A stretch of DNA of 63,573 bases, filler included, from Actinomycetota bacterium (GTDB lineage: Bacteria > Actinomycetota > CADDZG01 > JAHWKV01 > JAOPZY01): NCBI GenBank assembly GCA_025963875.1. It is 5 parts of 5 records of this genome, joined end to end, with 100 filler letters (N's around TTAATTAATTAA, not from the genome) between each part and the next. Parts side by side here need not be neighbours in the genome. Positions count along the whole stretch, not along the records: positions 53,644 to 63,573 come from JAOPZY010000270.1; 4 more parts are not named here. One strand, written 5' to 3'. Both the position numbers and the translations under genes were made by a program. Below are positions 6,637 through 63,573 of the stretch, piece by piece (the first letter of the stretch is position 1; every line of letters begins with the position of its first letter). The notes beneath the pieces were generated by a model, which was not told the DNA's origin, searched no databases, and saw only the letters and a program-made list of their open reading frames with translations.

Positions 6637-6736
6637 NNNNNNNNNNNNNNNNNNNNNNNNNNNNNNNNNNNNNNNNNNNNTTAATTAATTAANNNNNNNN
6701 NNNNNNNNNNNNNNNNNNNNNNNNNNNNNNNNNNNN
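6637..6736. other. Artificial contig spacer
   Basis: N-run, TTAATTAATTAA, N-run; 100 bp. Confidence 0.99.
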
Positions 6737-33753: not shown

Positions 33754-33853
33754 NNNNNNNNNNNNNNNNNNNNNNNNNNNNNNNNNNNNNNNNNNNNTTA
33801 ATTAATTAANNNNNNNNNNNNNNNNNNNNNNNNNNNNNNNNNNNNNNNNNNNN
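33754..33853. other. Artificial contig spacer
   Basis: N-run with TTAATTAATTAA. Confidence 0.99.
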
Positions 33854-42775: not shown

Positions 42776-42875
42776 NNNNNNNNNNNNNNNNNNNNNNNNN
42801 NNNNNNNNNNNNNNNNNNNTTAATTAATTAANNNNNNNNNNNNNNNNNNNNNNNNNNNNNNNNNNNNNNNNNNNN
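42776..42875. other. Artificial contig spacer
   Basis: N-run with TTAATTAATTAA. Confidence 0.99.
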
Positions 42876-49996: not shown

Positions 49997-50007
49997 TGCT
50001 AATCAAC

Positions 50008-50063
50008 GAGCGGCACGGAAGCTGCTCTGCCCAGCCAGACCAACAAACCGCACAAGGAGGTGC
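50008..50063 (+). promoter_or_regulatory. Two CsrA-type GGA-loop hairpins, the second over the RBS
   Basis: GAGCGGC-ACGGAA-GCTGCTC and GCAC-AAGGAG-GTGC. Confidence 0.65.
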
Positions 50064-50067
50064 TCGC

Positions 50068-50418
50068 TTGATTCTTGTCCACCGGCTCCGCGGCGAGCCC
50101 ATGTTCATCAACGAAGACCTGATCGAGTCGATTGAAGCGACGCCGGACACGGTCCTCACCCTGGTGGACGGGCGCAAGATTGTCGTCGCCGACCCGCCCC
50201 AGATGATCGTCGACCGGGCACGCGTGTACCGGGCCTCGGTGCTCGCAGCCACCGACGAACTGCGCTCGCGCAGCGAGGGCGGCGAGGTCCTGCAGTTCCC
50301 CGTCGCCGGCGCAGGAGCGAATTCCGGAGCGAATTCCGGAGCGAATTCTGACCCGAAGGCCGAGTCGAAGGCCGGTTCCCGGGCCTCCGTGCGGCGCCCG
50401 GTCGGGGGGGATCGCTGA
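50068..50418 (+). CDS. flbD: Flagellar FlbD-family protein
   Basis: MILVHRLRGEPMFINEDLIESIEATPDTVLTLVDGRKIVV; 12-bp GANS x3 repeat at 50314-50349. Confidence 0.9.
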   Translation: MILVHRLRGEPMFINEDLIESIEATPDTVLTLVDGRKIVVADPPQMIVDRARVYRASVLAATDELRSRSEGGEVLQFPVAGAGANSGANSGANSDPKAESKAGSRASVRRPVGGDR

Positions 50419-51218
50419 TGGCTCCCGTCGCCATCGGCATGTTCCTGGCACTGGGGGCACTCCTCTTTGCCGCGGTCCTCGAGAAGATCAACATGATGGC
50501 CCTGATCGCCCCCTCGCCGATGATCCTGGTGTTCGTCGGCAGCCTGGGCGCCACCTTCATCGCCTACAAGACCAAGGAGTGGAAGCGCATCCCGAAGGTG
50601 CTCGGCGTGGCGCTGAAGGGCAAGGTCCCCGACCCCGACGAGCTGGTCACCACGTTCGCCCACTTCGCCGACGTCGCCCGCAAGGAGGGCATGCTGGCCC
50701 TGGAGAGCGAGATCGGCAAGCTCGAGGACCCCTTCCTCAAGACCGGTTTGCAGCTTGTCATCGATGGCGTCGACGGCGAGCAGGTCCGGGAGGTCCTGGA
50801 GGTCGAGATCGAGTCGCTGACCCACCGCCACCACGACATGGCACAGTTCTTCCTCACCCTGGGCGGGTTCGCCCCCACCTTCGGGCTCATGGGCACCATC
50901 GTGGGGCTCATCGGCGTCCTGCGCGACCTGTCCGACCCGACCAAGCTCGGCAAGGGGATGGCGCTGGGGCTGCTCGGCACGCTCTGGGGCGTCATCGCTG
51001 CCAACCTCTTCTTCATGCCGATCGGCACGAAGCTGAACCGCCTGCACGACGCGGAGGTCGCCGTGCGCCGCATCGCCATCGAGGGCGTCCTCGGTATCCG
51101 TGAGGGCATGGCCAGCCGCATCCTGGTGGAGCGGCTGGAGGCACGCCTCAGCCCGGAACTGCGCAAGGGACACACCGGCCGGGCCGGCAAGTCGGCAGCT
51201 CCGCCGGTGGCCGCCTGA
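50418..51218 (+). CDS. motA: Flagellar stator MotA
   Basis: ARKEGMLALE, GLQLVIDG, APTFGLMGTIVGLI, GTLWG, ANLFFMPIGTKL. Confidence 0.95.
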   Translation: MAPVAIGMFLALGALLFAAVLEKINMMALIAPSPMILVFVGSLGATFIAYKTKEWKRIPKVLGVALKGKVPDPDELVTTFAHFADVARKEGMLALESEIGKLEDPFLKTGLQLVIDGVDGEQVREVLEVEIESLTHRHHDMAQFFLTLGGFAPTFGLMGTIVGLIGVLRDLSDPTKLGKGMALGLLGTLWGVIAANLFFMPIGTKLNRLHDAEVAVRRIAIEGVLGIREGMASRILVERLEARLSPELRKGHTGRAGKSAAPPVAA

Positions 51219-52108
51219 TGTCCGGTGGCGGCGGGGCCGACTCGCGCTGGCTGATCACGTACGGGGACCTCGTGACCCTGCTGATGGCGTTCTTCATTGC
51301 CCTCTACGGCATCTCGCATTCGGACCAGAAGAAGTTCCAGGAGTTCCTGAAGGGCCTGGGACCGTTCGGCAACGCTGCGGCCGCGAACACCGGCATCCTC
51401 AAGGGTGGCCCGAGCATCGTCGGTGCTGGCACCGGCGTCGGCAACGCCAAGTCCGGGTCGGCAGCCGTCGGGGGGTCCGGCGTCTCGGCCACGGGCTCGT
51501 CTGCCGGCTCGGCCGGCGGCGCGGGTACTGGCTCGGCCATCAGCGCCGTCACCAGGGCGGCCCTCGCCGGTGCCTCCAGCGGGGCCACGACCGCGGTCCT
51601 CAGCGGGGGTATCACCCCGGGCGTCCATGCCGGGCAGTCGGACCTGGCAGCGGTGGCCTACCACATCCAGCAGGGCCTGCAGGCACAGGGCTTCGGCAGC
51701 GCGGTCACCTTCACCGTCGAAAGTCGTGGGCTCGTCGCGACCATCGCCACCGACCACGTCCTGTTCGACTCGGGCTCGCCGCACATCAGCCCCTCGGGCG
51801 AGCGGATCATCGGCGCCATCGGGAGCACGCTCGCGCGGCTCTCGAACCCGGTGCTGATCGAGGGCCACACCGACAACGTCCCGCTCAACAGCAACGGCTA
51901 CACCAACTGGAACCTCTCGACCGACCGCGCGGTGGCAGTCCTGCAGATCCTCCAGAGCGGTTACGCCATCACCCCGACCAGGCTCTCGGCCGCCGGCTAC
52001 GGCGAATTCCACCCGGCAGCCTCCGACGCGACGCCCGAGGGCCGGGCCGCCAACCGGCGGGTCGAGATCGTGATCCTCACCGATCCATCCACCCCCGCCG
52101 CACCCTAA
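51218..52108 (+). CDS. motB: Flagellar stator MotB
   Basis: WLITYGDLVTLLMAFF, IEGHTDN, NWNLSTDRA, NRRVEI. Confidence 0.95.
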   Translation: MSGGGGADSRWLITYGDLVTLLMAFFIALYGISHSDQKKFQEFLKGLGPFGNAAAANTGILKGGPSIVGAGTGVGNAKSGSAAVGGSGVSATGSSAGSAGGAGTGSAISAVTRAALAGASSGATTAVLSGGITPGVHAGQSDLAAVAYHIQQGLQAQGFGSAVTFTVESRGLVATIATDHVLFDSGSPHISPSGERIIGAIGSTLARLSNPVLIEGHTDNVPLNSNGYTNWNLSTDRAVAVLQILQSGYAITPTRLSAAGYGEFHPAASDATPEGRAANRRVEIVILTDPSTPAAP

Positions 52109-52132
52109 CGACCAGGAAAGACAGGAGTCACC

Positions 52133-52603
52133 ATGGCAAAAGACAAAGCCGCCGCCCAGGAGGGGGACGTCAAGAAAAAGGGCAAGGGCAAGATCATCAT
52201 CATCCTCGTGGTCGTGCTGGTCGCCGGGATCGGGGCGAAGTTCACCGTCCTTTCGGGCGGCAAGGCCAGCGGCAAGGCGACGGCGACCCCCGCCCCGACG
52301 CCAACGCCGGGGGTGGTGATCGACCTGGGCACCATGACGATCAACCTCGCAGATCCGGGGCGCTACGCCCTCGTGGGCCTCGCGGTCGAGCTTGGCCCGA
52401 CCGGGACCGCCGAGAAATTCACGCCCGAGATGCCCTTGCTGAAAGACGCGACGGTCCGCAAGCTCGCCGGTTGGACCGCAGCGAGGCTGCTGTCGACGAC
52501 CGGCCAGGAAGACGTGCGGACCCAGCTCACCGACCAGGCCCAGCAGCTCTTCGGAAAGGATTCGGTCGTCAAGGTACTGCTCACCGAGCTCATCGTGCAG
52601 TAG
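52133..52603 (+). CDS. fliL: Flagellar basal body-associated protein FliL
   Basis: Lys-rich N-terminus with TM, TINLAD, C-terminal VLLTELIVQ. Confidence 0.9.
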   Translation: MAKDKAAAQEGDVKKKGKGKIIIILVVVLVAGIGAKFTVLSGGKASGKATATPAPTPTPGVVIDLGTMTINLADPGRYALVGLAVELGPTGTAEKFTPEMPLLKDATVRKLAGWTAARLLSTTGQEDVRTQLTDQAQQLFGKDSVVKVLLTELIVQ

Positions 52604-52633
52604 ACGGGCGTCCCACTTCGTAGCCGGTTCCCC

Positions 52634-52660
52634 TTGACTAGGCGACGTCGCGGCCGACTA
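52634..52660 (+). promoter_or_regulatory. Sigma28-like promoter upstream of fliM
   Basis: TTGA-N15-GCCGACTA. Confidence 0.5.
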
Positions 52661-52704
52661 CCCCAAATGAAGGCCGTGATGCCCGAGCTTGGGAGGCGAC
52701 ACCG

Positions 52705-53543
52705 TTGGAGACCGGAATTCTGGAGGCAGGCGGGGCTGCGCCCGGCCAGGCCCATCCCGCCACGGTCACGCGCGCCGACGATCGTCCGTGGTTCGAGCTC
52801 CGCCGCTCCGACGTCCTGACGCCGGAGCAGGTCGGCATCATCCGGGAGCTCCACCGGGGTTTCTCGCGCGAGGTCGGCCGCCGGGCCGGGAACGCGCTCC
52901 GCACCCTGGTACAGGTGTCGGCGACCGACGCCCAGCAGCGCCCCTACCGCTCCTTCGCCACCCGCATCGCGGTGCCGTGCATCGTCGCCCCCGTCAGTCT
53001 CGACCCGCTCCCCGGGGCCCTCGTCATCGCGATGCCCGGGCAGGCGGCGTTGTGCCTCGTGGACCGCCTGATGGGCGGCGACGGCCGAGCCTGTCCCGCG
53101 CGCGTCCCCACGGACCTGGAGATGCTGCTGATCGCCGACTTCCTCCAGCCCCTCCTCGTGCCGCTCACCGAGGCGTTCGAACCCGTGGTGGCCATCCGGC
53201 CCTCCCTCACCGCCATCGAGACCAACCCCGCCCTGCTCCGGGTCATCCCGGCGGCCGACATGACGTTGGTGCTGCCACTGGTCCTCACCTTCCCGGGCGC
53301 ACCCATGCCGGACGCCGTCCTCAGTCTCTGCTACCCCGTCACGACGCTGCGAGCGGCGTTCGAGCTGCTCGATCCCGGCGCAGGGCAGGAGCCACCTGTG
53401 GAGCTTCCCTTCGCCGCAGGGATGAGCTCCCAGCTCTCGCACGTGGATGTCGATCTCTCCGTGCACCTCAAGCCCTCACCCATCCCCGCCGGCGACATCG
53501 TCGGCCTCCGGATCGGCGACGTGCTCCGCCTCGACCACAAGAC
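52705..53543 (+). CDS. fliM: Flagellar motor switch protein FliM (divergent, truncated by contig end)
   Basis: FELRRSDVLTPEQ..., VDRLMGGDG, PTDLE, IETNP, LCYP, LRIGDVLRLDH. Confidence 0.85.
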
Positions 53544-53643
53544 NNNNNNNNNNNNNNNNNNNNNNNNNNNNNNNNNNNNNNNNNNNNTTAATTAATTAAN
53601 NNNNNNNNNNNNNNNNNNNNNNNNNNNNNNNNNNNNNNNNNNN
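53544..53643. other. Artificial contig spacer
   Basis: N-run with TTAATTAATTAA. Confidence 0.99.
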
Positions 53644-53838
53644 GAGGGCATCGAGTTCCGCGTCATCAACATTGCGGCCAACGGTCCAGTCGTGTTGACC
53701 GAGCGGGTGGACGTCTTCAGGCTCTCTGACAAGTCGTTCGAGCTGCCCGTCATGGGGGCCTTCGAGGTCAGCGACGGCAAAATCAAGGCCTGGCGGGACT
53801 ATTTCGACATGAACCAATTCACCAGCCAGATGAAATAA
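53644..53838 (+). CDS. Limonene-1,2-epoxide hydrolase family protein, C-terminal part
   Basis: Manual read: GPVVLTERVDVF...LPVMGAFEVSDGKIKAWRDYFD. Confidence 0.85.
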   Translation, partial: EGIEFRVINIAANGPVVLTERVDVFRLSDKSFELPVMGAFEVSDGKIKAWRDYFDMNQFTSQMK

Positions 53839-54042
53839 GGCTGGACCCGCTCGGCGTTCCGGAGGTCCGCAGAATCGATATGCGTACTTTGCCCGATCCG
53901 GTGGGCCATCGAGTAAAAACGCCATAACGATGCCCGGAGCCGGCGTTATGGGCGCCCCCGCTCGTCGTTCTGGCACGAGGGACCTCGGTAGCTGGGCGAG
54001 CGCATCGCGGGCAATCTGGCGCGTCCGGGGGTTGCGACCACG

Positions 54043-54858
54043 TCAGTGGTGGTGGCCCTGGCGGCCGAGGGTCTCCACGGGGGTCGCGCCGGGGCGGGTC
54101 CACTGCGGCACGGGCCGGCTGGTCGGGCCCCAGGTGGCGACGCCGTCGGCGTCCGAGCGCCAGTACCAGCAGATCGGCGAGCCATGCCCACCGACCGGCG
54201 AGCCGGCCTGAGGGGCCTCGGGCCAGCCCTCGGGGTTGTCCTCCCACGCCTCGCGGCGGCCGTAGGGCGTCATGTCGAGCAGGCCGAGGGACCCGTTGAC
54301 CGGCTCGTTGCCCCGGCCGGTCGTGGAGTAGGTGAGGAACACGCGGTCGCCGTCGCGCAGGAAACAGACGATGTGCCCCATTTCTCCGCCGACCGGCGCC
54401 TCCACGCCCCACACCGAGTACCAGGGCTGGGTGTAACCCATGAACTCGACGTAGGGAGCCACCTCGTCCCACGGGCCCGAGGTCAGGACGGCGAACGAGA
54501 CACCGCGGGCGTTGAGGTAGACGGCGTCCTTCACGTACCAGGCCGTGGTGGTGCAGCCCTCGCACTGCCCCTGGTACGGCGCGCCGTCGTACCACATGTG
54601 CTGGTAGACCACGAGCTCGTCGCGACCCTGGAACAGGTCGACGAACGGGACCGGCCCGTCAACGCCGGTGACCTCGACCGCGCCGTCGAGCTCGACCATC
54701 GGCAGCCGCCGTCGGGCCGCGGCGATCGCGTCGCCCTCATGGGTGTGCGCCTTCTCGCGGACCAGCAGCTCCTCGCGCGCCGCCTGCCAGGTGGCCAGGT
54801 CGACGACGGGCGGCTTGCCGGGGAGGTTGCTGCTCGCGTCGCCGGGCGTGGTCGTCAT
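54043..54858 (-). CDS. DUF899 family (thioredoxin-like) protein
   Basis: WQAAREELLVREKAHT...RRRLPMV, DLFQGR, QCEGC, FLTYSTTGRG, LDMTPYGRRE; GGAGG RBS. Confidence 0.9.
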   Translation of the reverse strand: MTTTPGDASSNLPGKPPVVDLATWQAAREELLVREKAHTHEGDAIAAARRRLPMVELDGAVEVTGVDGPVPFVDLFQGRDELVVYQHMWYDGAPYQGQCEGCTTTAWYVKDAVYLNARGVSFAVLTSGPWDEVAPYVEFMGYTQPWYSVWGVEAPVGGEMGHIVCFLRDGDRVFLTYSTTGRGNEPVNGSLGLLDMTPYGRREAWEDNPEGWPEAPQAGSPVGGHGSPICWYWRSDADGVATWGPTSRPVPQWTRPGATPVETLGRQGHHH

Positions 54859-54918
54859 GGTGTCCTCCGTTGTCTCGTCTCGTGCGCTCGCGGGCTCCCT
54901 GCGGCGCCTGTCAACTGA

Positions 54919-54945
54919 GACGACTCACAGTACCGAAACTCATCG
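54919..54945 (-). promoter_or_regulatory. SigG/ECF56-like promoter of the DUF899 gene
   Basis: CGATGA-N18-GTC on the minus strand (GCGATGAGTTT core). Confidence 0.5.
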
Positions 54946-55137
54946 CGATCCGAGTGCCAGGTTTACCTTCCGCGCCACAGGCCGCGCGCCGAGCGCACCG
55001 ACACCCACTCCTGCGTGAGATCGCCGGATGGCTGGATCGCGGTCGCACGCCAGATGCGACAGAGCCGCCTGCGCCATAACTGCCGAGATGCGTGGAAGCC
55101 GGCACGCCGAGAACGAGCAGAACGCGCGTACAGATCG

Positions 55138-56547
55138 CTAGTGCACCCCCGCATAAGTCCCACGCGTATTCGCGTCGGATCCCTGCGATCCTCGCACGGT
55201 GCCGTTGTTCACGGCATGAACCGCCCCCGGCGCCGGGGACCCGGCTCCTAGACGGCTCGCCTGCGAGCGACTCCCGGGTCTCCCCGGGCGGCCCGGTGCC
55301 GGGCAGGACCTGCGCTCGTCGTAGAGATGACGGCGCCGGTCACGCCGTGCTGGGACAGTCCCAGCCCGACGGTGCGTGACGCGTGCGGGTGCACGCATGG
55401 ATCCGCCGCCTCGGGCGGCGATGTTTCGGGCACCGACGAGATCCCGGTGGCCCGTGTGCCCGCAGTGCGGGCAGGAGAAGGAGCGTCCCCTGGGCTTGGG
55501 GACGGCCTTCTGGCACTCCGGGCAGGTGGACGACGTCCCCCGCTCGTTCACGAGCACCACCTCGATCCCCGCCAGCTCCGCCTTGTCGGACAGGCACGCC
55601 AGCAGATGCGTGCGCCGCCAGTTGCGAAGCCGCAGGCTCTGGTGGCGGCCGCAGTCCCTGGTGGTGATGCCCTTGGGATCGCCGACGACCACGGTGCCCA
55701 CCCTGTGCTCCACCAGCCACGACACCACAGCCTTGGCCGCCTCGTGCTGGCCCTGGCGGACCCTGCGGCGGTGACGGGCCTCGGCCCTGCGCCGGGATGC
55801 CCGATGGCGCCGCCATCGGCGGCTGCCCCTCTCGCCCTTGGAGGGTGCCTTTCCCGCCGCCTTCCGGGAGCGGCGCTTGGTGTCCTCCAGATGCAGGCGT
55901 TCCTCGGCTCGGATGGCCCGGCCCGAGACCAGGAGACCCTCGTCGCCGGCCATCACAGCGTAGGGATGGATGATGCCGAGGTCGACACCGGCGGTCATGG
56001 CCGGATCCAGGTCGTGCACCTCCACCGCCACCTCGGCCGTGACGTCGAGGTAGAGCCTCCCCGCCTCGGCGACGAGGGTGAGCGAGCGGAGCGACTCAAC
56101 CGGGTAGGGGATCGCCCGACCCAGACGCACCCACAACTCGGGAGCGCCCCGGGCCACGCCGAGGCGGACCCGGGACCCGTCAAAGGAGAAGCAACCGAAG
56201 CGGAAGCGCGCGGGGACCAGGCCCCGCTTGCGGCGGGGGAAGCCCGCCCGAAGCCCTGCCTTCTGGCGCTTGGCGGCCTCGAAGAAGGCGATGGAATAGT
56301 TCTTCAGGACGTTCTCGGCGCAGTGCCGGGACAGCTCCCCAAAGGCCGTGCCCGTGAGCTCCCGGCACAGGGCCGAGAAGTTGGCCACCTCGGGGCGGTG
56401 CTGCTCCCGGAGCTGGCGGTTGCAGTCGATCACCCAGGCCCACACGTCCCCGGCGGAGCGCAGCAGGCCGAAGCACCGACGGCGCTGGGCAGGCGTGGTC
56501 CGCAGGGCGACCCTGGCGGTGCGGTGAACCGTGCGAATGAAACACAT
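55138..56547 (-). CDS. tnpB: RNA-guided endonuclease TnpB (no tnpA nearby)
   Basis: GFPRRK, RuvC-I AGVDLG, VVGD, VNERGTSSTCPEC...CPHC zinc finger, RuvC-III HRDLVGARNI. Confidence 0.95.
   Translation of the reverse strand: MCFIRTVHRTARVALRTTPAQRRRCFGLLRSAGDVWAWVIDCNRQLREQHRPEVANFSALCRELTGTAFGELSRHCAENVLKNYSIAFFEAAKRQKAGLRAGFPRRKRGLVPARFRFGCFSFDGSRVRLGVARGAPELWVRLGRAIPYPVESLRSLTLVAEAGRLYLDVTAEVAVEVHDLDPAMTAGVDLGIIHPYAVMAGDEGLLVSGRAIRAEERLHLEDTKRRSRKAAGKAPSKGERGSRRWRRHRASRRRAEARHRRRVRQGQHEAAKAVVSWLVEHRVGTVVVGDPKGITTRDCGRHQSLRLRNWRRTHLLACLSDKAELAGIEVVLVNERGTSSTCPECQKAVPKPRGRSFSCPHCGHTGHRDLVGARNIAARGGGSMRAPARVTHRRAGTVPARRDRRRHLYDERRSCPAPGRPGRPGSRSQASRLGAGSPAPGAVHAVNNGTVRGSQGSDANTRGTYAGVH
55141..55320 (-). 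ncRNA. Predicted omegaRNA scaffold overlapping the 3' end of tnpB
   Basis: Hairpins at 55162-55175, 55200-55216, 55225-55238, 55255-55268, 55273-55288 and 55292-55303, under a non-conserved C-terminal tail. Confidence 0.65.
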
Positions 56548-56552
56548 GTTCG
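56539..56552 (-). promoter_or_regulatory. LexA (SOS) box over the tnpB start codon
   Basis: CGAAC-ATGT-GTTTC matches Gram-positive CGAACRNRYGTTYC. Confidence 0.7.
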
Positions 56553-56554
56553 CA

Positions 56555-56576
56555 AGGATAGCGAGAGGTGCCGACA
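56555..56576 (-). promoter_or_regulatory. PafBC-dependent (RecA-NDp) promoter motif
   Basis: TGTCGG-cacctctcgc(N10)-TATCCT, ending 7 nt before the ATG. Confidence 0.75.
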
Positions 56577-56689
56577 GAAAACGGGCCGTTTTCGAGACCG
56601 GACGAAGAAAGCTTGAAAGACAGGCGACCCTTCTCATCTCGAAGATATGGAGGGCCAAATCAACTGACTGTTATTAATGCGAGGCAGCG

Positions 56690-57807
56690 CTAGGCCGTTC
56701 GGCGCCGGATCCACCCGATGGTCGCAGCCCCGCAGAGCAGCGCAAGGAGCACGTAGGCCGCGGCCTCGACGCCCTGGAAGTGCCAGAAGCGGCTGGCCGG
56801 CTGGTAGCTGACCCCGAGCTGATAGCCGTGCTGGGTCAGCCAGGTCGGGAAGGTGTCGCTGGGTCCTCCTGAGCCAGGTACCGGAGCAGCCCGGGCAGGA
56901 CCTCCGGTGGGCAGCCCGGGGTCGAAGTTGGCCTGCTTGAGCAGGTCGGTGATCTGCGGGGAGGTCAGATGGTGCCCGGAGGCGTCCTGGGTCCAGCGGG
57001 CGACCTCCCAGGCGGTCTGGGGCGCAACCGTCCCGACGCTGGCGGTGCCGTTCGAGAACTCGATCGCGAGCGGGGTGCGCGCCGCACCGGTCGCGGCGAG
57101 ATGGGTGACGGGCGTTTCGATGAGCGGCCGGAGCCCAAACATCGAGAGGAGGACCACGGCGAGCCACAGCACTGCGGTGGCCGCCATCGCCGGGACCGTG
57201 CGACGGATGAGCGTCCCGGCAAGGGCCCCGAGCATGAAGGCGAACAGCGTCCTGGCCGCAAAGACGATGCCGGAGACCTCGTAAGCCTGGGCCGGGTTCA
57301 TCCTTCCCATGATCGACAGCCACGGCCCGTACCACCAGGTGAAGAGGAGGGAGAACCCGATCGCCAGGACGGTCAGGACCGTCGCCAGGATCACCAGCTT
57401 TGCAACGATCCAGCGCACGCGGCTGCGGCCCTGTGTCCATGCGAAGCGGTAGGTGCCCGACTCCAGCTCCCGGGCCACCAGGGGGGCGCCCACGAACAAA
57501 CCGAGGAGCCCTGGGAGCAGCATCAGGAACGTCGGCAGCGTCTCTGCCGGGCCTCGGTAGTGCTGCTGGAAGAGATCGAGCTGCACATGGCAGGCGCCCG
57601 AGAAGAGATCGCCACAGGTCGCGAGCCCGTACCGGTGGAAGGCATGATGCATGGCGAGACCGTTGATCACGAGGAACGCTCCGAGGCCCCCGAGCACCAG
57701 GAGGGCGCCGCCGAGTGCGAAGCGGTGCTGGCGCCAGGTGACCCAGGGAAGCCCGCGCAGGACCCCCCGCCGTGCGGGACGACCGGTGAACTCAAGGGTG
57801 GTGACGC

Positions 57808-57811
<4 letters not shown>
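56690..57811 (-). CDS. ABC transporter permease
   Basis: WVTWRQHR, GAPLVARELESGTYRFAWTQ, YQPASRFWHFQ, multiple TM segments. Confidence 0.9.
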
Positions 57812-58712
<901 letters not shown>

Positions 58713-58716
<4 letters not shown>

Positions 58717-59183
58717 GAGGCGGCCGCCGTATGGCCCGCCCCGCGTTCACGGGGTGCTTTTCCCAGTGATGGCTGCTGCGTGCGGTCGTTCAGGGCGCTG
58801 GTGAACAGGGCGGTGATCCCCTCGGGGTCGAGCCCGGCCTCGAGCGCGGTGTCGAGCCAGCGGGCCAGCCCTTTCTGGAGGGTCTGCTGATCCCGCAGGG
58901 GAACGACCTCGAGCGTTCCCTCGACGAAGGTGCCCTGCCCGGGCCGGCCGGCGACGAGGCCCTTGTGCTCCAGCTCGCGGTAAGCCTTGAGCACGGTGTT
59001 CGGGTTGATTGCCAATGCAGCCACAACCTCCTTGACGGTGGGAAGCCGGTCGCCGGGCTCCAGGTAGCCAAGGCGGAGCGCATGCTGCACCTGACGGACG
59101 ATCTGCTGGTAGGTCGGCACCCCCGAACCCGGGTCGAGCCGAAAGACGATCGAAGCTCCATCCACTGCTTTATCTATCACCAT
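58713..59183 (-). CDS. GntR (YtrA subfamily) regulator
   Basis: VPTYQQIV, GDRLPTVKE, INPNTVLKAYRELE, GQGTFV. Confidence 0.92.
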
Positions 59184-59370
59184 AGTTAAATGGTTGCATA
59201 GATCGTGCCCGAGGTCAATGGGGTTGCCAGGGAGGCGGGGAACTCTCTTCAGCCCGAATCCGGGTCGGCCTCTGGTCCTCCTCCTCCGGCCCTCGGGGGA
59301 GCCGCAGGCCGGACCTCGGAAGTGTGGCTCTGGGCACGCCGCGCCGTCGAGATTCGGGGGGCTTCGGGAC

Positions 59371-60078
59371 TCAGTCCGGAGGCTCCGAGGGGCGGAGCAG
59401 CCACCGGTAGCCGATGCCGGGGTCGGTGACGACGATGCGGGGCCGTCGCGGGTCCTCCTCGATCTTGCGCCGAAGCTGGCTGACGAACACGCGCAGCACA
59501 TCGACGTCACCTTCATAGCCATTCCCCCACACCCGGTCGAGGAGCCAGCCGTGCGTGAGGAGCTTGCCCGGGTGCTGAGCGAGCGCCTCGACCAGCGACC
59601 ACTCCGTCTTCGTCAGGTGGATCTCCGCGCCGCCACGGGCGATGGTGTGGCTGGAGAGGTCGATCGAGAGATCGCCGTCGTTGAAACGGAACGGCCCGGG
59701 TGTTCCCTGGCCCCCCGTCCGGCGCAGAAGCGCCCGCACCCGGGCCATCAGCTCGTCGACGCCAAAGGGCTTCGTCAGGTAGTCGTCTGCGCCCAGATCC
59801 AGCGCCGCCACCTTGTCGGCCTCGTCCTCACGGACGGACAGCACGAGGATGGGGACCGCGCTCCACGCGCGGAGGTGCCGGCATACCGCCAGACCGTCGA
59901 GCTCGGGCAGGTTGAGGTCGAGGATCACGAGGTCGGGGTCGAAGGTCCGGGCGGCACCGATGGCCTCCTCTCCGTCGGCGGCAACCTCGACGGCGAAGCC
60001 CCGGGACGAAAGGGCACGACGGACCGCCTTGCGGATGGCCTCCTCGTCATCGACGACCAGGACCTTGCCCTTTTTCAC
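59371..60078 (-). CDS. KdpE-like response regulator
   Basis: VVDDE, DKVAALDLGADDYLTKPF, LRRKIEEDPRRP..TDPGIGYR. Confidence 0.9.
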   Translation of the reverse strand: MKKGKVLVVDDEEAIRKAVRRALSSRGFAVEVAADGEEAIGAARTFDPDLVILDLNLPELDGLAVCRHLRAWSAVPILVLSVREDEADKVAALDLGADDYLTKPFGVDELMARVRALLRRTGGQGTPGPFRFNDGDLSIDLSSHTIARGGAEIHLTKTEWSLVEALAQHPGKLLTHGWLLDRVWGNGYEGDVDVLRVFVSQLRRKIEEDPRRPRIVVTDPGIGYRWLLRPSEPPD

Positions 60079-61520
60079 GCGGACAGGCTTCCCCCGGTGA
60101 GGCTCCCCACCGCCAGCGGCAGTGAGAAGCGGAAGGTCGCGCCACCGCCCACTGTCTCGTCCACCCAGATCGCGCCGCTCATAAGGGCGAGGAACCCCTT
60201 GCAGATCGCCAGCCCAAGGCCCGTGCCGACGTGCGAGTTGCGTCGGTCGACTTGGTAGAAGGCGACGAAGAGGTCCCTGCGGAGCTCCGGGGCTACCCCC
60301 CTGCCGTGGTCGATGACGGCAACGACCACCGTTGCGTCGTCGGGATCGCGGTGCGCCTCGACCTCGATGCCACGGGTGCCGGACTCGGTGGCCGCCTTGG
60401 CCGCGTTCTCCAGGAGGTTGGCGACGACCCGGTCAAGGAACAGCGGGTCCGCACGCACCCCAGCGGCGTCGTCGTCGACGTTCAGCGAGATTGACAAGCC
60501 GGGCCACCGCCGCAACGCCCGGTCGACGCACTCGGACAGCACCTCGCCGAGGTCGACACCCTGCACCCTGGCCCGCAGGATGCCCCCCTCGATGCGCGAC
60601 ATGTCCAGCAGGTTGGCGATCATCGACGCCAGCCGGTCGGTCTCATCGTTGACGCTCTCCAGGGCCTCCCGCAGGTCGTCCGGGCTGTGCTCGGCGTCCT
60701 CGCCAAGCAGGTCGGTCACCGACGCCTTGATGGCCGCCAGCGGGCTGCGCAGGTCGTGGGAGACTGCCGCCAGCAGCGACCGCCGCAGATGGTCCGTCTC
60801 CCGGTACACCTGGGCCTCCATGGCCGCCTTCGAGAGCCGGTCCCGCTCGGCCACCACGGCGAGCTGGTCCGAAAAGGCCCGGAGCACCCGGCCCTCCGCA
60901 TCGCTCAACGGAGGCCGTTCCCCGCGAAGGGTCAACCGGCCGAGTGAGCGACCCCCCACTGACAGTGCCATCTCCATACCGGGGTCCCCGAGAGGGCCCG
61001 AGGCCTCGTCCAGCGCAAGGGTCACTGACGAGAAGCCAAACAGAGCGCCCACCCGGGCCAGGACGGCGTCGTAGCTCCCGTCACCTGCCCCCAGGGCAAC
61101 CAGCAGGGCGCTCAGCTCCTGCAGCCCGGCGAGCCCGGCCTCCCGGGCCTCGGCCGCCTCGGCCCGTTCGCTGGCCCGGGCCAGCGCCGCAGAGATCAGG
61201 ATCGAAAGCCCGAGGAACACGAACAGCACCACGATGTCCTCGCCGCTGCCGATGATGAAGCTGTTGTAGGGCGGGAGGAAGAAGAAGTTGAACGTGAGGA
61301 AACTGAGCAGCGACGCAAGAATGCCCGGCCCCAGGCCCCCGATGGCCGCCGCAGCCACCACGATGACGAGGTAGCCGAACCCCTTGCTGAGGGGGGCGAG
61401 GCCGTTGCGGAACGGCAGGAGGGCGGCCGTCAGCGCCGCGGTGCCCACCGTGGCAACCAGGTAACCGGCGAGGCGCCGGCGTGGCCGTCGGATGGTCAAC
61501 CGCGCAAGCCGCGGCGGCAT
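60075..61520 (-). CDS. KdpD-like sensor kinase (4-TM DUF4118-like domain, HisKA, HATPase)
   Basis: FNFFFLPPY, SHDLRSPLAAI, NLLENAAK, GTGLGLAICK; start uncertain (61520-61631). Confidence 0.88.
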   Translation of the reverse strand: MPPRLARLTIRRPRRRLAGYLVATVGTAALTAALLPFRNGLAPLSKGFGYLVIVVAAAAIGGLGPGILASLLSFLTFNFFFLPPYNSFIIGSGEDIVVLFVFLGLSILISAALARASERAEAAEAREAGLAGLQELSALLVALGAGDGSYDAVLARVGALFGFSSVTLALDEASGPLGDPGMEMALSVGGRSLGRLTLRGERPPLSDAEGRVLRAFSDQLAVVAERDRLSKAAMEAQVYRETDHLRRSLLAAVSHDLRSPLAAIKASVTDLLGEDAEHSPDDLREALESVNDETDRLASMIANLLDMSRIEGGILRARVQGVDLGEVLSECVDRALRRWPGLSISLNVDDDAAGVRADPLFLDRVVANLLENAAKAATESGTRGIEVEAHRDPDDATVVVAVIDHGRGVAPELRRDLFVAFYQVDRRNSHVGTGLGLAICKGFLALMSGAIWVDETVGGGATFRFSLPLAVGSLTGGSLSA

Positions 61521-61700
61521 CCTGCCGCGGGTCCCCGTGATCGTTCCGGCGACGAAGGCCATCTCGCGATCAAGTCTGGCACGTCGCCGGCCAATACCAA
61601 CGCGTCCCGTAGCCCCAAGAACGCTTTCCATACGAAATCCATAGGCAGGCCCCCTAGCCTTGAGGAGCAGACATAACGTGGCGACCGAAAGGGGCTCGCA

Positions 61701-62039
61701 ATGGCGTCGTCGGAAGGCATGGATATCGTGCGCACACCGGCTCGCACGGTCGTGATCATCGGAGTGGACCCGTGCGTTGACATCCGGGCGATTGCTGGCG
61801 CCGTGGCCAGCCAACGCGGCGAGCTGCTCGTCCTGGCCACCGGCTGGCCCCTTACGGCCGTGCAGCAACGCGTGATGCACGACGCGTCGGACGCTGCCGC
61901 GGATCTGCGCCTCCCGTTCGAAGCACGTCTGGTCTACAGCGAGGCCGAGGTCGAGGACCATCTGCTGCCGGACGACACCGTGGTCATGCCGGGCCGGGTC
62001 GAGAACGCCGTCCCGCGGCCGGTGCCAAGCTTCGCGTAG
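61701..62039 (+). CDS. Hypothetical protein
   Basis: 112-aa ORF with GC-rich third positions, divergent from the kinase. Confidence 0.5.
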   Translation: MASSEGMDIVRTPARTVVIIGVDPCVDIRAIAGAVASQRGELLVLATGWPLTAVQQRVMHDASDAAADLRLPFEARLVYSEAEVEDHLLPDDTVVMPGRVENAVPRPVPSFA

Positions 62040-62133
62040 GCCGGCAGCGTCGCTCACCACCTTCGGCATCGGCACGCGCCTTGCAATGAGCCACGTGACC
62101 CTGGGCGTCCGTCGAGCAGGGGCATAGGAGCCG

Positions 62134-62300
62134 GTGCCGAGCCACCACCCCGGCGATCGAATCGACGACTATGAGGTCAAGGACCTGCTTGGTGCCGGTG
62201 GCTGGGCGGAGGTCTTCCGGGCAATCGACACCAGAACCGGGGAGACCGTGGTTCTTAAGTGCCCGAACTCACAGCTCTTCGCCGACCCCGCTGCGTTTTC
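62134..62300 (+). pseudogene. Ser/Thr protein kinase N-lobe fragment
   Basis: YEVKDLLGAGGWAEVFRA...VVLK with no HRD/DFG motifs after it; AGGAG RBS. Confidence 0.75.
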
Positions 62301-62412
62301 CAGTTCTGCGTGGGTGGCAGCGTCGAGCGGGCGATGGGGGCACTCATCACTCACGGTGATCAGCAGGGAGGCGAGGCCACCCACTACTGGCAACTTGGCT
62401 GGCGATGCGGAG

Positions 62413-62461
62413 CTTCTTTGTGTGAATAGCTATGATAATGATAGTTAATTACACAAAGAAG
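62413..62461. repeat. AT-rich palindromic element, copy 2
   Basis: CTTCTTTGTGTG...TACACAAAGAAG, 49 bp. Confidence 0.8.
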
Positions 62462-62629
62462 ATTGCTATGAGGCTACATACCTTCGTGTCGGAGGATCAA
62501 TCGCCTTCGACGCCCCGGCTTGGCGTCGAGTTTGACCACGATGAGTGAGCAGGTGATGCACCCAGCGGAACGGTCAGGGCCGGGTCTGAGCCAGCCGAGC
62601 CCAGAGATCCGTCTCTTCGTGTTGGTTGG

Positions 62630-62690
62630 TGCGGCCCGAGTACAAAGCCGTTCTGCGACGGGACCCACGAGAAGGCGAACTTCGCTGCGG
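62630..62690 (+). pseudogene. CDGSH iron-sulfur domain relic
   Basis: Frame reads WCGPSTKPFCDGTHEKANFAA; first Cys of the motif and an in-frame start are missing. Confidence 0.55.
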
Positions 62691-62791
62691 TGAACAAAGC
62701 TCATGTCCGATTTCGCTGTGGATCCCCCTCCCAGGTCTGGCGACCTGGGCCGCCAACCCCAGCCCGCGAACCCCGACTAGAATCGGTGCCG

Positions 62792-63573
62792 GTGAGCGAT
62801 CAGGCAACGGACGAGAGCCGGCAGATCTGGGACTCGCTCGCGTCCGGCTGGGACAAGGAACGGGCGTTCATCAACGAAATCGAAGGGCACGTCACCGGGC
62901 GGATGCACGAGGCCATGGGCGTAGTACCCGGCGACACCATCCTCGAGCTGTGTGCCGGCCCGGGCGAGGTCGGTCTCCGACTTGCCGAGCAGCATCCCGA
63001 GGTGCAGGTGCTCCTCACCGACTTTGCACCGGGCATGGTGCACGCGGCTGCCAACGAGGCCAACAGGCGCGGATTGACGAACGCGGAGTGCCGACCGATG
63101 GATGCACAGGACATCGATCTGCCCGATGGATCGGTGGACGGCGTGCTCTGCCGGTACGGACTCATGCTCGTCCCGGACATCGCGAAGGCGTTCTCCGAGG
63201 TCCGGCGCGTGCTGCGGCCCGGACGCGTCCTCGCGTACACGACGTGGACGCCACCCGAGACCAATCCGTGGATGATGATCTTCGGCGCAGCGATGATCCA
63301 GCGCGGCCACTTCGTGCCGCCCGATGAGGGTGGCATCATGCCCCTCGGGAATGTGGATGAGAACAGTGCCGTGGCGCGGGCCGCAGGTTTCGAGAGCGTG
63401 CACGCCGAGACCATCGACCTCCCGGTTCACTATCCGAGCTTCCAGCGGTACTGGGAGCTGAACACCGAGATCGCCGGTCCGCTCGCGGTGATCATGAAGA
63501 CGCTGCCCGAAAACGAGCGAGAGGCGGTGCGCTCCCAGGTCGAGGAGTACGCGGCTGCCTTCCGGACGGGCGA
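62792..63573 (+). CDS. Class I SAM-dependent methyltransferase (runs off the window)
   Basis: Manual read: ILELCAGPGE, TDFAPGM, MDAQDIDLPDGSVDGVLCRYGLM, RVLRPG. Confidence 0.9.
   Translation, partial: MSDQATDESRQIWDSLASGWDKERAFINEIEGHVTGRMHEAMGVVPGDTILELCAGPGEVGLRLAEQHPEVQVLLTDFAPGMVHAAANEANRRGLTNAECRPMDAQDIDLPDGSVDGVLCRYGLMLVPDIAKAFSEVRRVLRPGRVLAYTTWTPPETNPWMMIFGAAMIQRGHFVPPDEGGIMPLGNVDENSAVARAAGFESVHAETIDLPVHYPSFQRYWELNTEIAGPLAVIMKTLPENEREAVRSQVEEYAAAFRTG

Follow-up and report, generated by a model that had tools for sequence, protein, structure and literature searches.

We analysed a 63,573-nucleotide (nt) stretch of DNA, hereafter the window, from the metagenome-assembled genome of a soil member of the Actinomycetota (G000; 3.84 Mb in 273 contigs, 69% G+C, 94.6% complete). 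The window consists of five contigs joined by pairs of 44-N runs, with the joins at window positions 6637-6736, 33754-33853, 42776-42875 and 53544-53643. Contig C240, which corresponds to window 53644-63573, carries a TnpB element of 1,552 bp plus six letters (CTAGCG) that fit either end, at 55136..56693 on the minus strand. TnpB, from which Cas12 descends, serves as a genome-editing tool. In nature it is thought to cut the donor site once this has been emptied, the transposon then being restored by recombination. To our knowledge, tnpB expression in natural hosts has barely been described. Here we describe the 5' end of this tnpB gene, where the left end of the element probably holds a leaderless promoter responsive to DNA damage. 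The sequence-only reading of this stretch had proposed that a solo TnpB is wired to both actinobacterial DNA-damage regulons, PafBC and LexA.

The tnpB coding sequence (55138..56547, minus strand) encodes 469 amino acids and is the sole gene inside the element, so that "solo" describes it correctly. Against Pfam, the 469-residue open reading frame (ORF) matched Cas12f1-like_TNB (PF07282) with 73.4 bits and OrfB_IS605 (PF01385) with 37.2 bits, and the NCBIfam model NF040570 (guided_TnpB) scored 140.2 bits against a cut-off of 100 over residues 13-379. The RuvC D-E-D residues D189, E335 and D369 are intact (GVD189LG, VNE335RGTS, HRD369), and two CxxC pairs of a zinc ribbon are present, CPEC at 342 and CPHC at 359. 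The genome contains three copies of the element, on contigs C240, C26 and C117, which share 88-89% nucleotide identity and lie at unrelated sites. Their most conserved 3' block, 95-98% identical in the three copies, overlies the 3' end of the ORF (55255..55434, minus strand) and, judged by this conservation, is a candidate omega RNA scaffold; at gathering score, no Rfam family was found in 50000-63573.

Read along the minus strand, the region ahead of tnpB shows, in order, TGTCGG (56576-56571), cacctctcgc, TATCCT (56560-56555), tgcgaac, the ATG (56547-56545) and tgtttc, exactly the TGTCGG-N10-TATCCT-7 nt-ATG layout that had been claimed. TGTCGG (56571..56576) corresponds to a PafBC-type -26 element, its GTC triplet falling at about -28 to -26 provided that the A of the ATG is the first transcribed base. 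TATCCT (56555..56560) is a -10 hexamer of the form TANNNT, 10 nt past the -26 element and 7 nt ahead of the ATG. A simple scan of 55000-56800 returned no sigma-70-type -35/-10 pair. The pattern TGTCRG-N10-TANNNT matched once in the window against 0.08 expected (at least one match in 8 of 100 shuffles), and 31 times on both strands of the 3.84-Mb genome. Most of these 31 matches share a longer consensus, ggcc.ttttcTGTCGGtaccc.tc..TAnnnT, and the genes downstream of them include recA, radA, rmuC, comM, a dnaN-like gene and rpsF. This gene content is of the kind known for the PafBC regulon. With a matrix trained on 12 sites, none of them before a TnpB gene, 35 sites exceeded 12 bits and 27 reached at least 20 bits genome-wide; the tnpB site scored 42.1 bits and ranked 9 in 3.84 Mb, and recA was lower at 41.1. 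The rank of the site, the module that it has in common with recA, radA, comM and rmuC, and the presence of pafBC in the genome (see below) all argue that the PafBC-type motif was correctly recognised.

The ATG at 56545..56547 (minus strand), with a predicted leaderless transcription start at 56547, is conserved as the start. Because only 7 nt separate the -10 hexamer from it, a leaderless tnpB transcript would be the natural reading. Indeed, no Shine-Dalgarno-like purine-rich run was found at -25..-1 of the ATG, and among the motif matches listed for the genome, 15 that reach a matrix score of at least 15 bits have a start codon 6-10 nt past the -10. Furthermore, the protein alignments of homologues begin at residues 5-9 of TnpB. 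Two upstream candidates were rejected as the start: an in-frame ATG (56637, -90 nt), which is present in C240 and C117 and out of frame in C26, and a TTG (56658). The peptide between the -90 ATG and the tnpB ATG is frameshifted between C240 and C117, and with its frame shifting among the copies the upstream stretch is evidently non-coding. The leaderless-distance ATG proposed earlier is thus the likely start of tnpB.

The second motif concerns LexA, whose palindrome in Gram-positive bacteria and actinobacteria is GAAC-N4-GTTC, or TCGAAC-N4-GTTCGA in its extended form. Spanning the predicted transcription start and the ATG is a putative LexA (SOS) box, GCGAAC-ATGT-GTTTCA (GCGAACATGTGTTTCA; 56538..56553, minus strand), which extends from 1 nt past the -10 to 9 nt beyond the predicted start. 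GAAC-N4-GTTC occurs 54 times in the genome. Counting mismatches to TCGAAC-N4-GTTCGA gave 367 sites with 2 mismatches in this 69%-GC genome and was dropped in favour of a matrix. The matrix was built from 13 non-TnpB training sites: four perfect TCGAAC-N4-GTTCGA sites, the recA site, the lexA candidate box GCGAACAAATGTTTGC and the rest before genes for UvrD-type helicase, DnaB and similar genes. With it, the C240 tnpB box scored 16.6 bits (rank 24 of 3.84 M positions), the C117 box 17.2 bits (rank 23) and the C26 box 21.6 bits (rank about 12). The recA box scored 18.9 bits and the lexA candidate box, which likewise ends in GTTT, 17.8 bits. A search of -70..+72 around the 27 strong PafBC-type sites yielded LexA sites of 16 bits or more at recA and the three tnpB copies only.

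Both motifs form a conserved footprint amid diverged left-end sequence. The footprint alignment comprised nine relatives, namely the three copies of this genome, a pair of sequences from a same-genus genome and four metagenome contigs of 63-86% protein identity. CGAACATGTGTT was identical in all nine and TGTCGG..TCGCTATC was retained in eight, with the far-left-end sequence unalignable in four. The codons right after ATGTGTT are free to vary, which points to a constraint on the DNA and not on the protein. The block lies inside the left end of a mobile element, where cis-acting sites are expected, and the three element copies are recent relatives, so one might take it for a part of the transposition machinery, such as a binding site for a transposase or for TnpB itself, whose likeness to damage motifs is incidental. 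We consider this very improbable. The same extended module stands ahead of the non-mobile genes recA, radA, comM and rmuC, and the terminal repeats, to which a transposase would bind, lie about 100 nt further out. Moreover, among the homologues described below, the LexA box and the -26 element swap order and spacing, yet hold promoter-like distances to the start codon.

The regulators on which a damage-responsive promoter would depend, lexA, recA and a pafB/pafC pair, were all found in the genome. lexA lies on C182 and is identified by TIGR00498 (207 bits) and by the Pfam domains LexA_DNA_bind and Peptidase_S24. On C215 there is a tandem pair consisting of a pafB-like gene (WYL and WCX domains) followed by pafC (HTH_PafC, WYL and WCX); NCBIfam gave no name for the two ORFs, which were identified by their Pfam domains. 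At the 5' end of the pafB-like gene, or slightly within the gene, there is a LexA-type box of 21.3 bits, TCAAACGCATGTTCGA (C215:5865-5880; locus L068:2866-2881), so the activator operon may itself be LexA-controlled; the true start of the gene is uncertain. recA (contig C8:68-2236, minus strand) is a 722-residue frame. An insert of about 1 kb, of the kind that an intein would give, divides its RecA Pfam match into two parts (1-198 and 193-262). Upstream of the gene there are a PafBC-type promoter and, 35 nt ahead of its TGTCGG, a LexA box.

The motifs also recur beyond this genome. A search of genome contigs with the single TnpB protein gave only three loci, and of 61 related genomes, the host included, four had a match. 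For metagenome homologues we used the best 80 of 316 relatives (50-86% identity). Three of these loci (L129, L134 and L147), with less than 60 nt upstream of the predicted start, were left out, so that 77 were counted, with a 114-nt window at the predicted start as the test region and the remainder of the same loci as the control. A LexA box of at least 16 bits was present in 45 of the 77 5' windows (43 at 20 bits or more), compared with one in 135,423 bases of control. The canonical TGTCRG-N10-TANNNT was found in 5 of the 77 against none in 270,846 strand-bases, and the PafBC geometry, that is, TGTCRG with a -10 (NANNNT) and a start 5-9 nt on, in 11 against none in the same control. TGTCRG at any position occurred in 24 of the 77, with 157 per 270,846 strand-bases in the control (about 5 expected). 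Five of the 77 loci had both a LexA box and PafBC geometry. Far from being absent from homologous elements, the motifs are therefore recurrent at their tnpB starts.

On a FastTree tree, the LexA box is found throughout a 45-row clade, the presence of TGTCRG needs seven changes, and the dual state occurs in two subclades with different layouts. In the sister clade, 18 of 25 rows have TGTCRG without any LexA box. The offset of the LexA box differs among the homologues, lying over the ATG, over the -10 or upstream of the -26 element, and four layouts can be told apart. In the first, as in the C240 element, the box lies across the ATG of a PafBC-type promoter. In the second, seen in contig C40 of the host, in a same-genus genome and in three contigs, it lies directly upstream of the -26 element. 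Genome G042, taken by itself, likewise has a LexA box upstream of the -26 element. The third and largest group has a TTGACG-type -35, 17 nt and then the LexA box, with the ATG 1 nt past the box; here the left half of the box may serve as the -10. The fourth layout, that of a sister group, combines TTGTCGGTG with a -10-like hexamer 6 nt ahead of the start and has no LexA box. This distribution is to be read as a LexA operator retained over a deep clade amid a promoter that was rebuilt, with PafBC-type elements in several branches; it does not show 45 separate gains.

Several observations weigh against dual control of the C240 copy, and they bear unequally on its two halves. The homologue counts are not independent, because the presence of the LexA box amounts to two changes on the tree of 78 proteins. 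Clustering the windows at 90% leaves 67 groups: LexA is the sole signal in 33 and PafBC geometry in 5, the two occur together in 5, and 24 lack both (de-replicated totals of 38/67 for LexA and 10/67 for PafBC geometry). The training sites of both matrices were picked by us from motif and gene context. On the PafBC side, the genome encodes two more WYL proteins, and the identity of the activator as PafBC is assumed. The mycobacterial -26 form is TGTCRGTG, and the flank in this genome, TGTCGGTACCC, is unlike it, with TACCC/CACC after TGTCGG and not TG. On the LexA side, the box of this copy is imperfect, with one core mismatch (GTTT) followed by CA instead of GA. The base after GTT is C in seven of the nine aligned relatives, T in this copy and G in one, which makes the C240 copy the bearer of a derived, weaker LexA half-site. 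The relaxed pattern CGAAC-N4-GTTY matched once in the window against 0.74 expected, and at least once in 47 of 100 shuffles.

These points lend some substance to a rival account in which the promoter is driven by PafBC only, the LexA box having decayed from GTTC to GTTT, so that tnpB would be damage-induced without a LexA gate. The C240 box scores below both of its paralogues (16.6 bits versus 21.6 and 17.2), it is one of only two of the nine aligned sequences without GTTC, the bare pattern is no rarer than chance in the window, and the sister clade has TGTCRG without the box. On the other hand, the candidate operator of lexA itself also ends in GTTT and scores about as high, at 17.8 bits, just 23 positions in 3.84 Mb outscore the C240 box, and the core CGAACATGTGTT is intact. 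We therefore regard a PafBC-only promoter as unlikely and prefer control by both regulators, in which the PafBC half is well supported and the LexA half, in this copy, moderately supported. The case for LexA control is weaker here than that for PafBC control because the box of this copy, with its GTTT, is the weakest of its subclade. Since the bare pattern is not rare, support for the LexA box has to come from its genome-wide rank, from GTTC in the relatives and from the homologues. Thus, the LexA part of the sequence-only reading is supported by the placement of the box over the start and by a score near those of lexA and recA, and is weakened by the mismatched half-site and by how readily the bare pattern arises.

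Similar promoters stand before other TnpB genes of the genome. A fourth relative, on C40, has a LexA box of 21.2 bits and a weaker PafBC-type site. A second TnpB family (MASFRSFQY.., with an HTH_OrfB_IS605 N-terminus) lies behind PafBC-type promoters at C8:29693, C52:444, C100:55, C115:32864 and C137:10282. Several copies of this second family are short remnants, and their orphan promoters could read into adjoining genes. A third TnpB gene, on C6, has a PafBC-type site of 28 bits with the start codon 6 nt past the -10. The TnpB genes on C167, C147 and C186 are truncated by contig ends and were left out of the 5'-end comparison. At C222:2479-4274, a 589-residue ORF shows weak likeness to TnpB (guided_TnpB 31 bits; TNB domain E = 0.0024) and has a LexA box, CAGAACATGTGTTCGC, 10 nt ahead of its start. 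C147:10583-10652 is a decayed left end of the first family, in which TGTCGG and TATCCT stand further apart and ACGAACATGTGTTCCC comes next; it adjoins a second-family TnpB gene on the opposite strand. PafBC-type promoters also precede a five-copy gene family (C96:13914, C105:24570, C114:30388, C174:1247 and C181:3389). The two intact ORFs that were scanned, in which the start codon is 7 nt past the -10, show a likeness to MTES_1575 restriction-endonuclease-like proteins below the Pfam cut-off, and that on C174 also to AbiEi_4.

Turning to the element as a whole, similarity among the three copies runs from CCTAG, at the stop codon of an upstream ABC-2 permease gene, to the tnpB stop codon. The left terminal inverted repeat (56670..56693, minus strand) starts with CTAG, of which the TAG doubles as the permease stop, and the right one (55138..55161, plus strand) reads CTAGTGCACC... 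and overlaps the tnpB stop codon. Comparison of the left end with the reverse complement of the right in the three copies showed imperfect inverted repeats of about 22 bp at the two ends, each starting with CTAG. The outer 60-nt block of the left end is 95% identical in the three copies, and the promoter block is also among their best-conserved parts. CTAG/TA is present at both ends, and the six ambiguous letters are compatible with or without a TA duplication. Contigs from three soil metagenome runs (two studies) join 55135 directly to 56688, skipping 1,552 bases with the six ambiguous letters; the short side of the junction measures 24 letters in two contigs and 100 in one. An empty-site allele therefore exists. 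No public RNA run was listed as containing the tnpB element.

The 94.6%-complete genome yielded no match to Y1 TnpA (PF01797). IS630-type DDE_3 genes occur on other contigs, and the strict terminal-repeat pattern revealed no further element and no IS630-type partner sharing the repeat in this genome. This is thus a TnpB-only element of the inverted-repeat kind and not of the hairpin-ended IS605 kind, although subterminal hairpins were not searched for. A tnpB wired like host repair genes, in an element with no partner transposase gene and a genome in which no Y1 TnpA was found, could suggest a domesticated TnpB that the host retains as part of its damage response, for instance as a guided nuclease or repressor. 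We hold this to be highly doubtful. The three diverged copies have intact inverted-repeat ends at unrelated sites, presence and absence are polymorphic with a precise junction, the RuvC D-E-D residues are intact, and the IS630-type DDE_3 genes could act in trans, though no common repeat was found. With three diverged copies and an empty-site allele, mobility is the better supported reading, ahead of domestication. The earlier suggestion of either homing after transposon excision or a domesticated stress or defence role is therefore narrowed on one side and altered on the other: mobility is favoured and domestication disfavoured, and the IS605-style picture of homing after TnpA excision needs adapting to an element with inverted repeats and CTAG termini in a genome that gave no Y1 TnpA match.

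For the damage-responsive promoter that we favour, the data show the motifs, their ranks and conservation, the regulators and the insertion polymorphism, and we infer the binding, the induction, the transcription start, the co-expression of the guide RNA and the benefit to the element, and the sequence of events may be pictured as follows. In an undamaged cell, the promoter would be silent, having no -35 and LexA across its start. Without a -35, RNA polymerase should need PafBC. Single-stranded DNA would switch on PafBC, which would bind the -26 TGTCGG and adapt the SigA holoenzyme (sigma adaptation), and transcription from TATCCT would then start at the A of the ATG and give a leaderless tnpB mRNA. 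A LexA dimer over the start would add repression until RecA-stimulated cleavage of LexA. The transcript would yield TnpB, with the guide RNA probably coming from its conserved 3' end. Under such a two-regulator promoter, the nuclease-guide complex would appear mainly when recombinational repair is induced. A guided double-strand break could then be repaired from an element-bearing copy, and the cost would be lowest in an undamaged cell.

A built-in damage-responsive promoter would provide the transposon with a simple rule, in which the nuclease is made while recombinational repair is on and retention of the transposon is tied to the stress state of the host. More speculatively, whole TnpB lineages of soil Actinomycetota may have joined the two DNA-damage regulons of their hosts and cut only during RecA-dependent repair, a timing that would make guide-directed restoration of the element work. 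Through PafBC and RecA, the sensors of single-stranded DNA, their breaks could also act back on the damage response and so make these elements conditional amplifiers of it. We put this forward as a tentative idea that is rather less likely to be right than wrong. In more practical terms, such elements could be a source of compact (about 40 bp) leaderless, damage-inducible promoter/operator modules, and their promoters suggest that PafBC-type regulons reach well beyond mycobacteria.

Among known systems, those of Mycobacterium tuberculosis bear most directly on novelty. The M. tuberculosis transposases labelled as PafBC candidates are, as we presume, TnpB homologues of IS607-type elements. According to PMC8151990, nine transposases and a resolvase are over-expressed in a recA mutant treated with mitomycin C. 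In its supplement, Rv0605/06, Rv0921/22, Rv2792c, Rv2885c/86c, Rv2978c/79c and Rv3827c/28c are marked "PafBC_candidate", with motif matches such as TGTCGGTG..TAGGAA just upstream of resolvase genes. These pairs are mobile-element genes that mitomycin C induces and that have been placed in the PafBC regulon (PMC8151990), which parallels the damage control proposed here for tnpB. They differ in that the promoter stands before a serine-recombinase gene, which the transposase gene follows, and no LexA box is reported in the accessible text (PMC8151990), whereas the element described here is TnpB-only, has inverted-repeat ends and carries a putative LexA box as well. PafBC control of TnpB-bearing elements is therefore not new. 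In the literature on TnpB together with DNA damage, SOS, mitomycin or PafBC, we found no description of LexA control or of dual control of tnpB, and in a 2026 OMEGA review (PMC13565253) the terms SOS, LexA, DNA damage and stress are absent. The novelty assumed by the sequence-only reading thus persists for dual control and is reduced for its PafBC half, which has the M. tuberculosis precedent (PMC8151990).

The promoter itself is closest to the mycobacterial RecA-NDp promoters. As described in PMC8635444, PafBC promoters have no -35, and their -26 element contains a GTC triplet that is read by PafB. The likeness covers the missing -35, the GTC-containing -26 element and a -10 ten nt downstream (PMC8635444, PMC6789036), and it extends to the module ahead of recA and repair genes of the same genome and to the presence of pafBC. 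Unlike the mycobacterial cases, the host is an uncultured soil Actinomycetota lineage, and the tnpB promoter lies inside a mobile element and is predicted to start a leaderless gene. Dual control of recA in actinobacteria is alike in that a LexA box and a PafBC-type promoter are found in one region, as at recA of this genome. At tnpB, by contrast, the PafBC promoter has its own transcription start, together with the start codon, covered by the box, and the target gene is transposon-borne.

With regard to the element, PMC13565253 describes TnpB genes within elements that have inverted repeats and a DDE transposase, for instance IS630. Our element is like the IS630-like elements in its terminal inverted repeats and CTAG/TA ends and unlike them in having no transposase gene (PMC13565253). 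The nearest biological parallel is ISDra2 of Deinococcus radiodurans, in which, according to PMC2806898, irradiation triggers a transposition that is coupled to genome fragmentation. The two have in common that the activity of a TnpB-bearing insertion sequence is tied to DNA damage, observed in ISDra2 (PMC2806898) and proposed here. They differ in phylum and in the kind of coupling, which in ISDra2 is to genome fragmentation, whereas in the element described here it would act at the level of transcription, through the damage regulators of the host.

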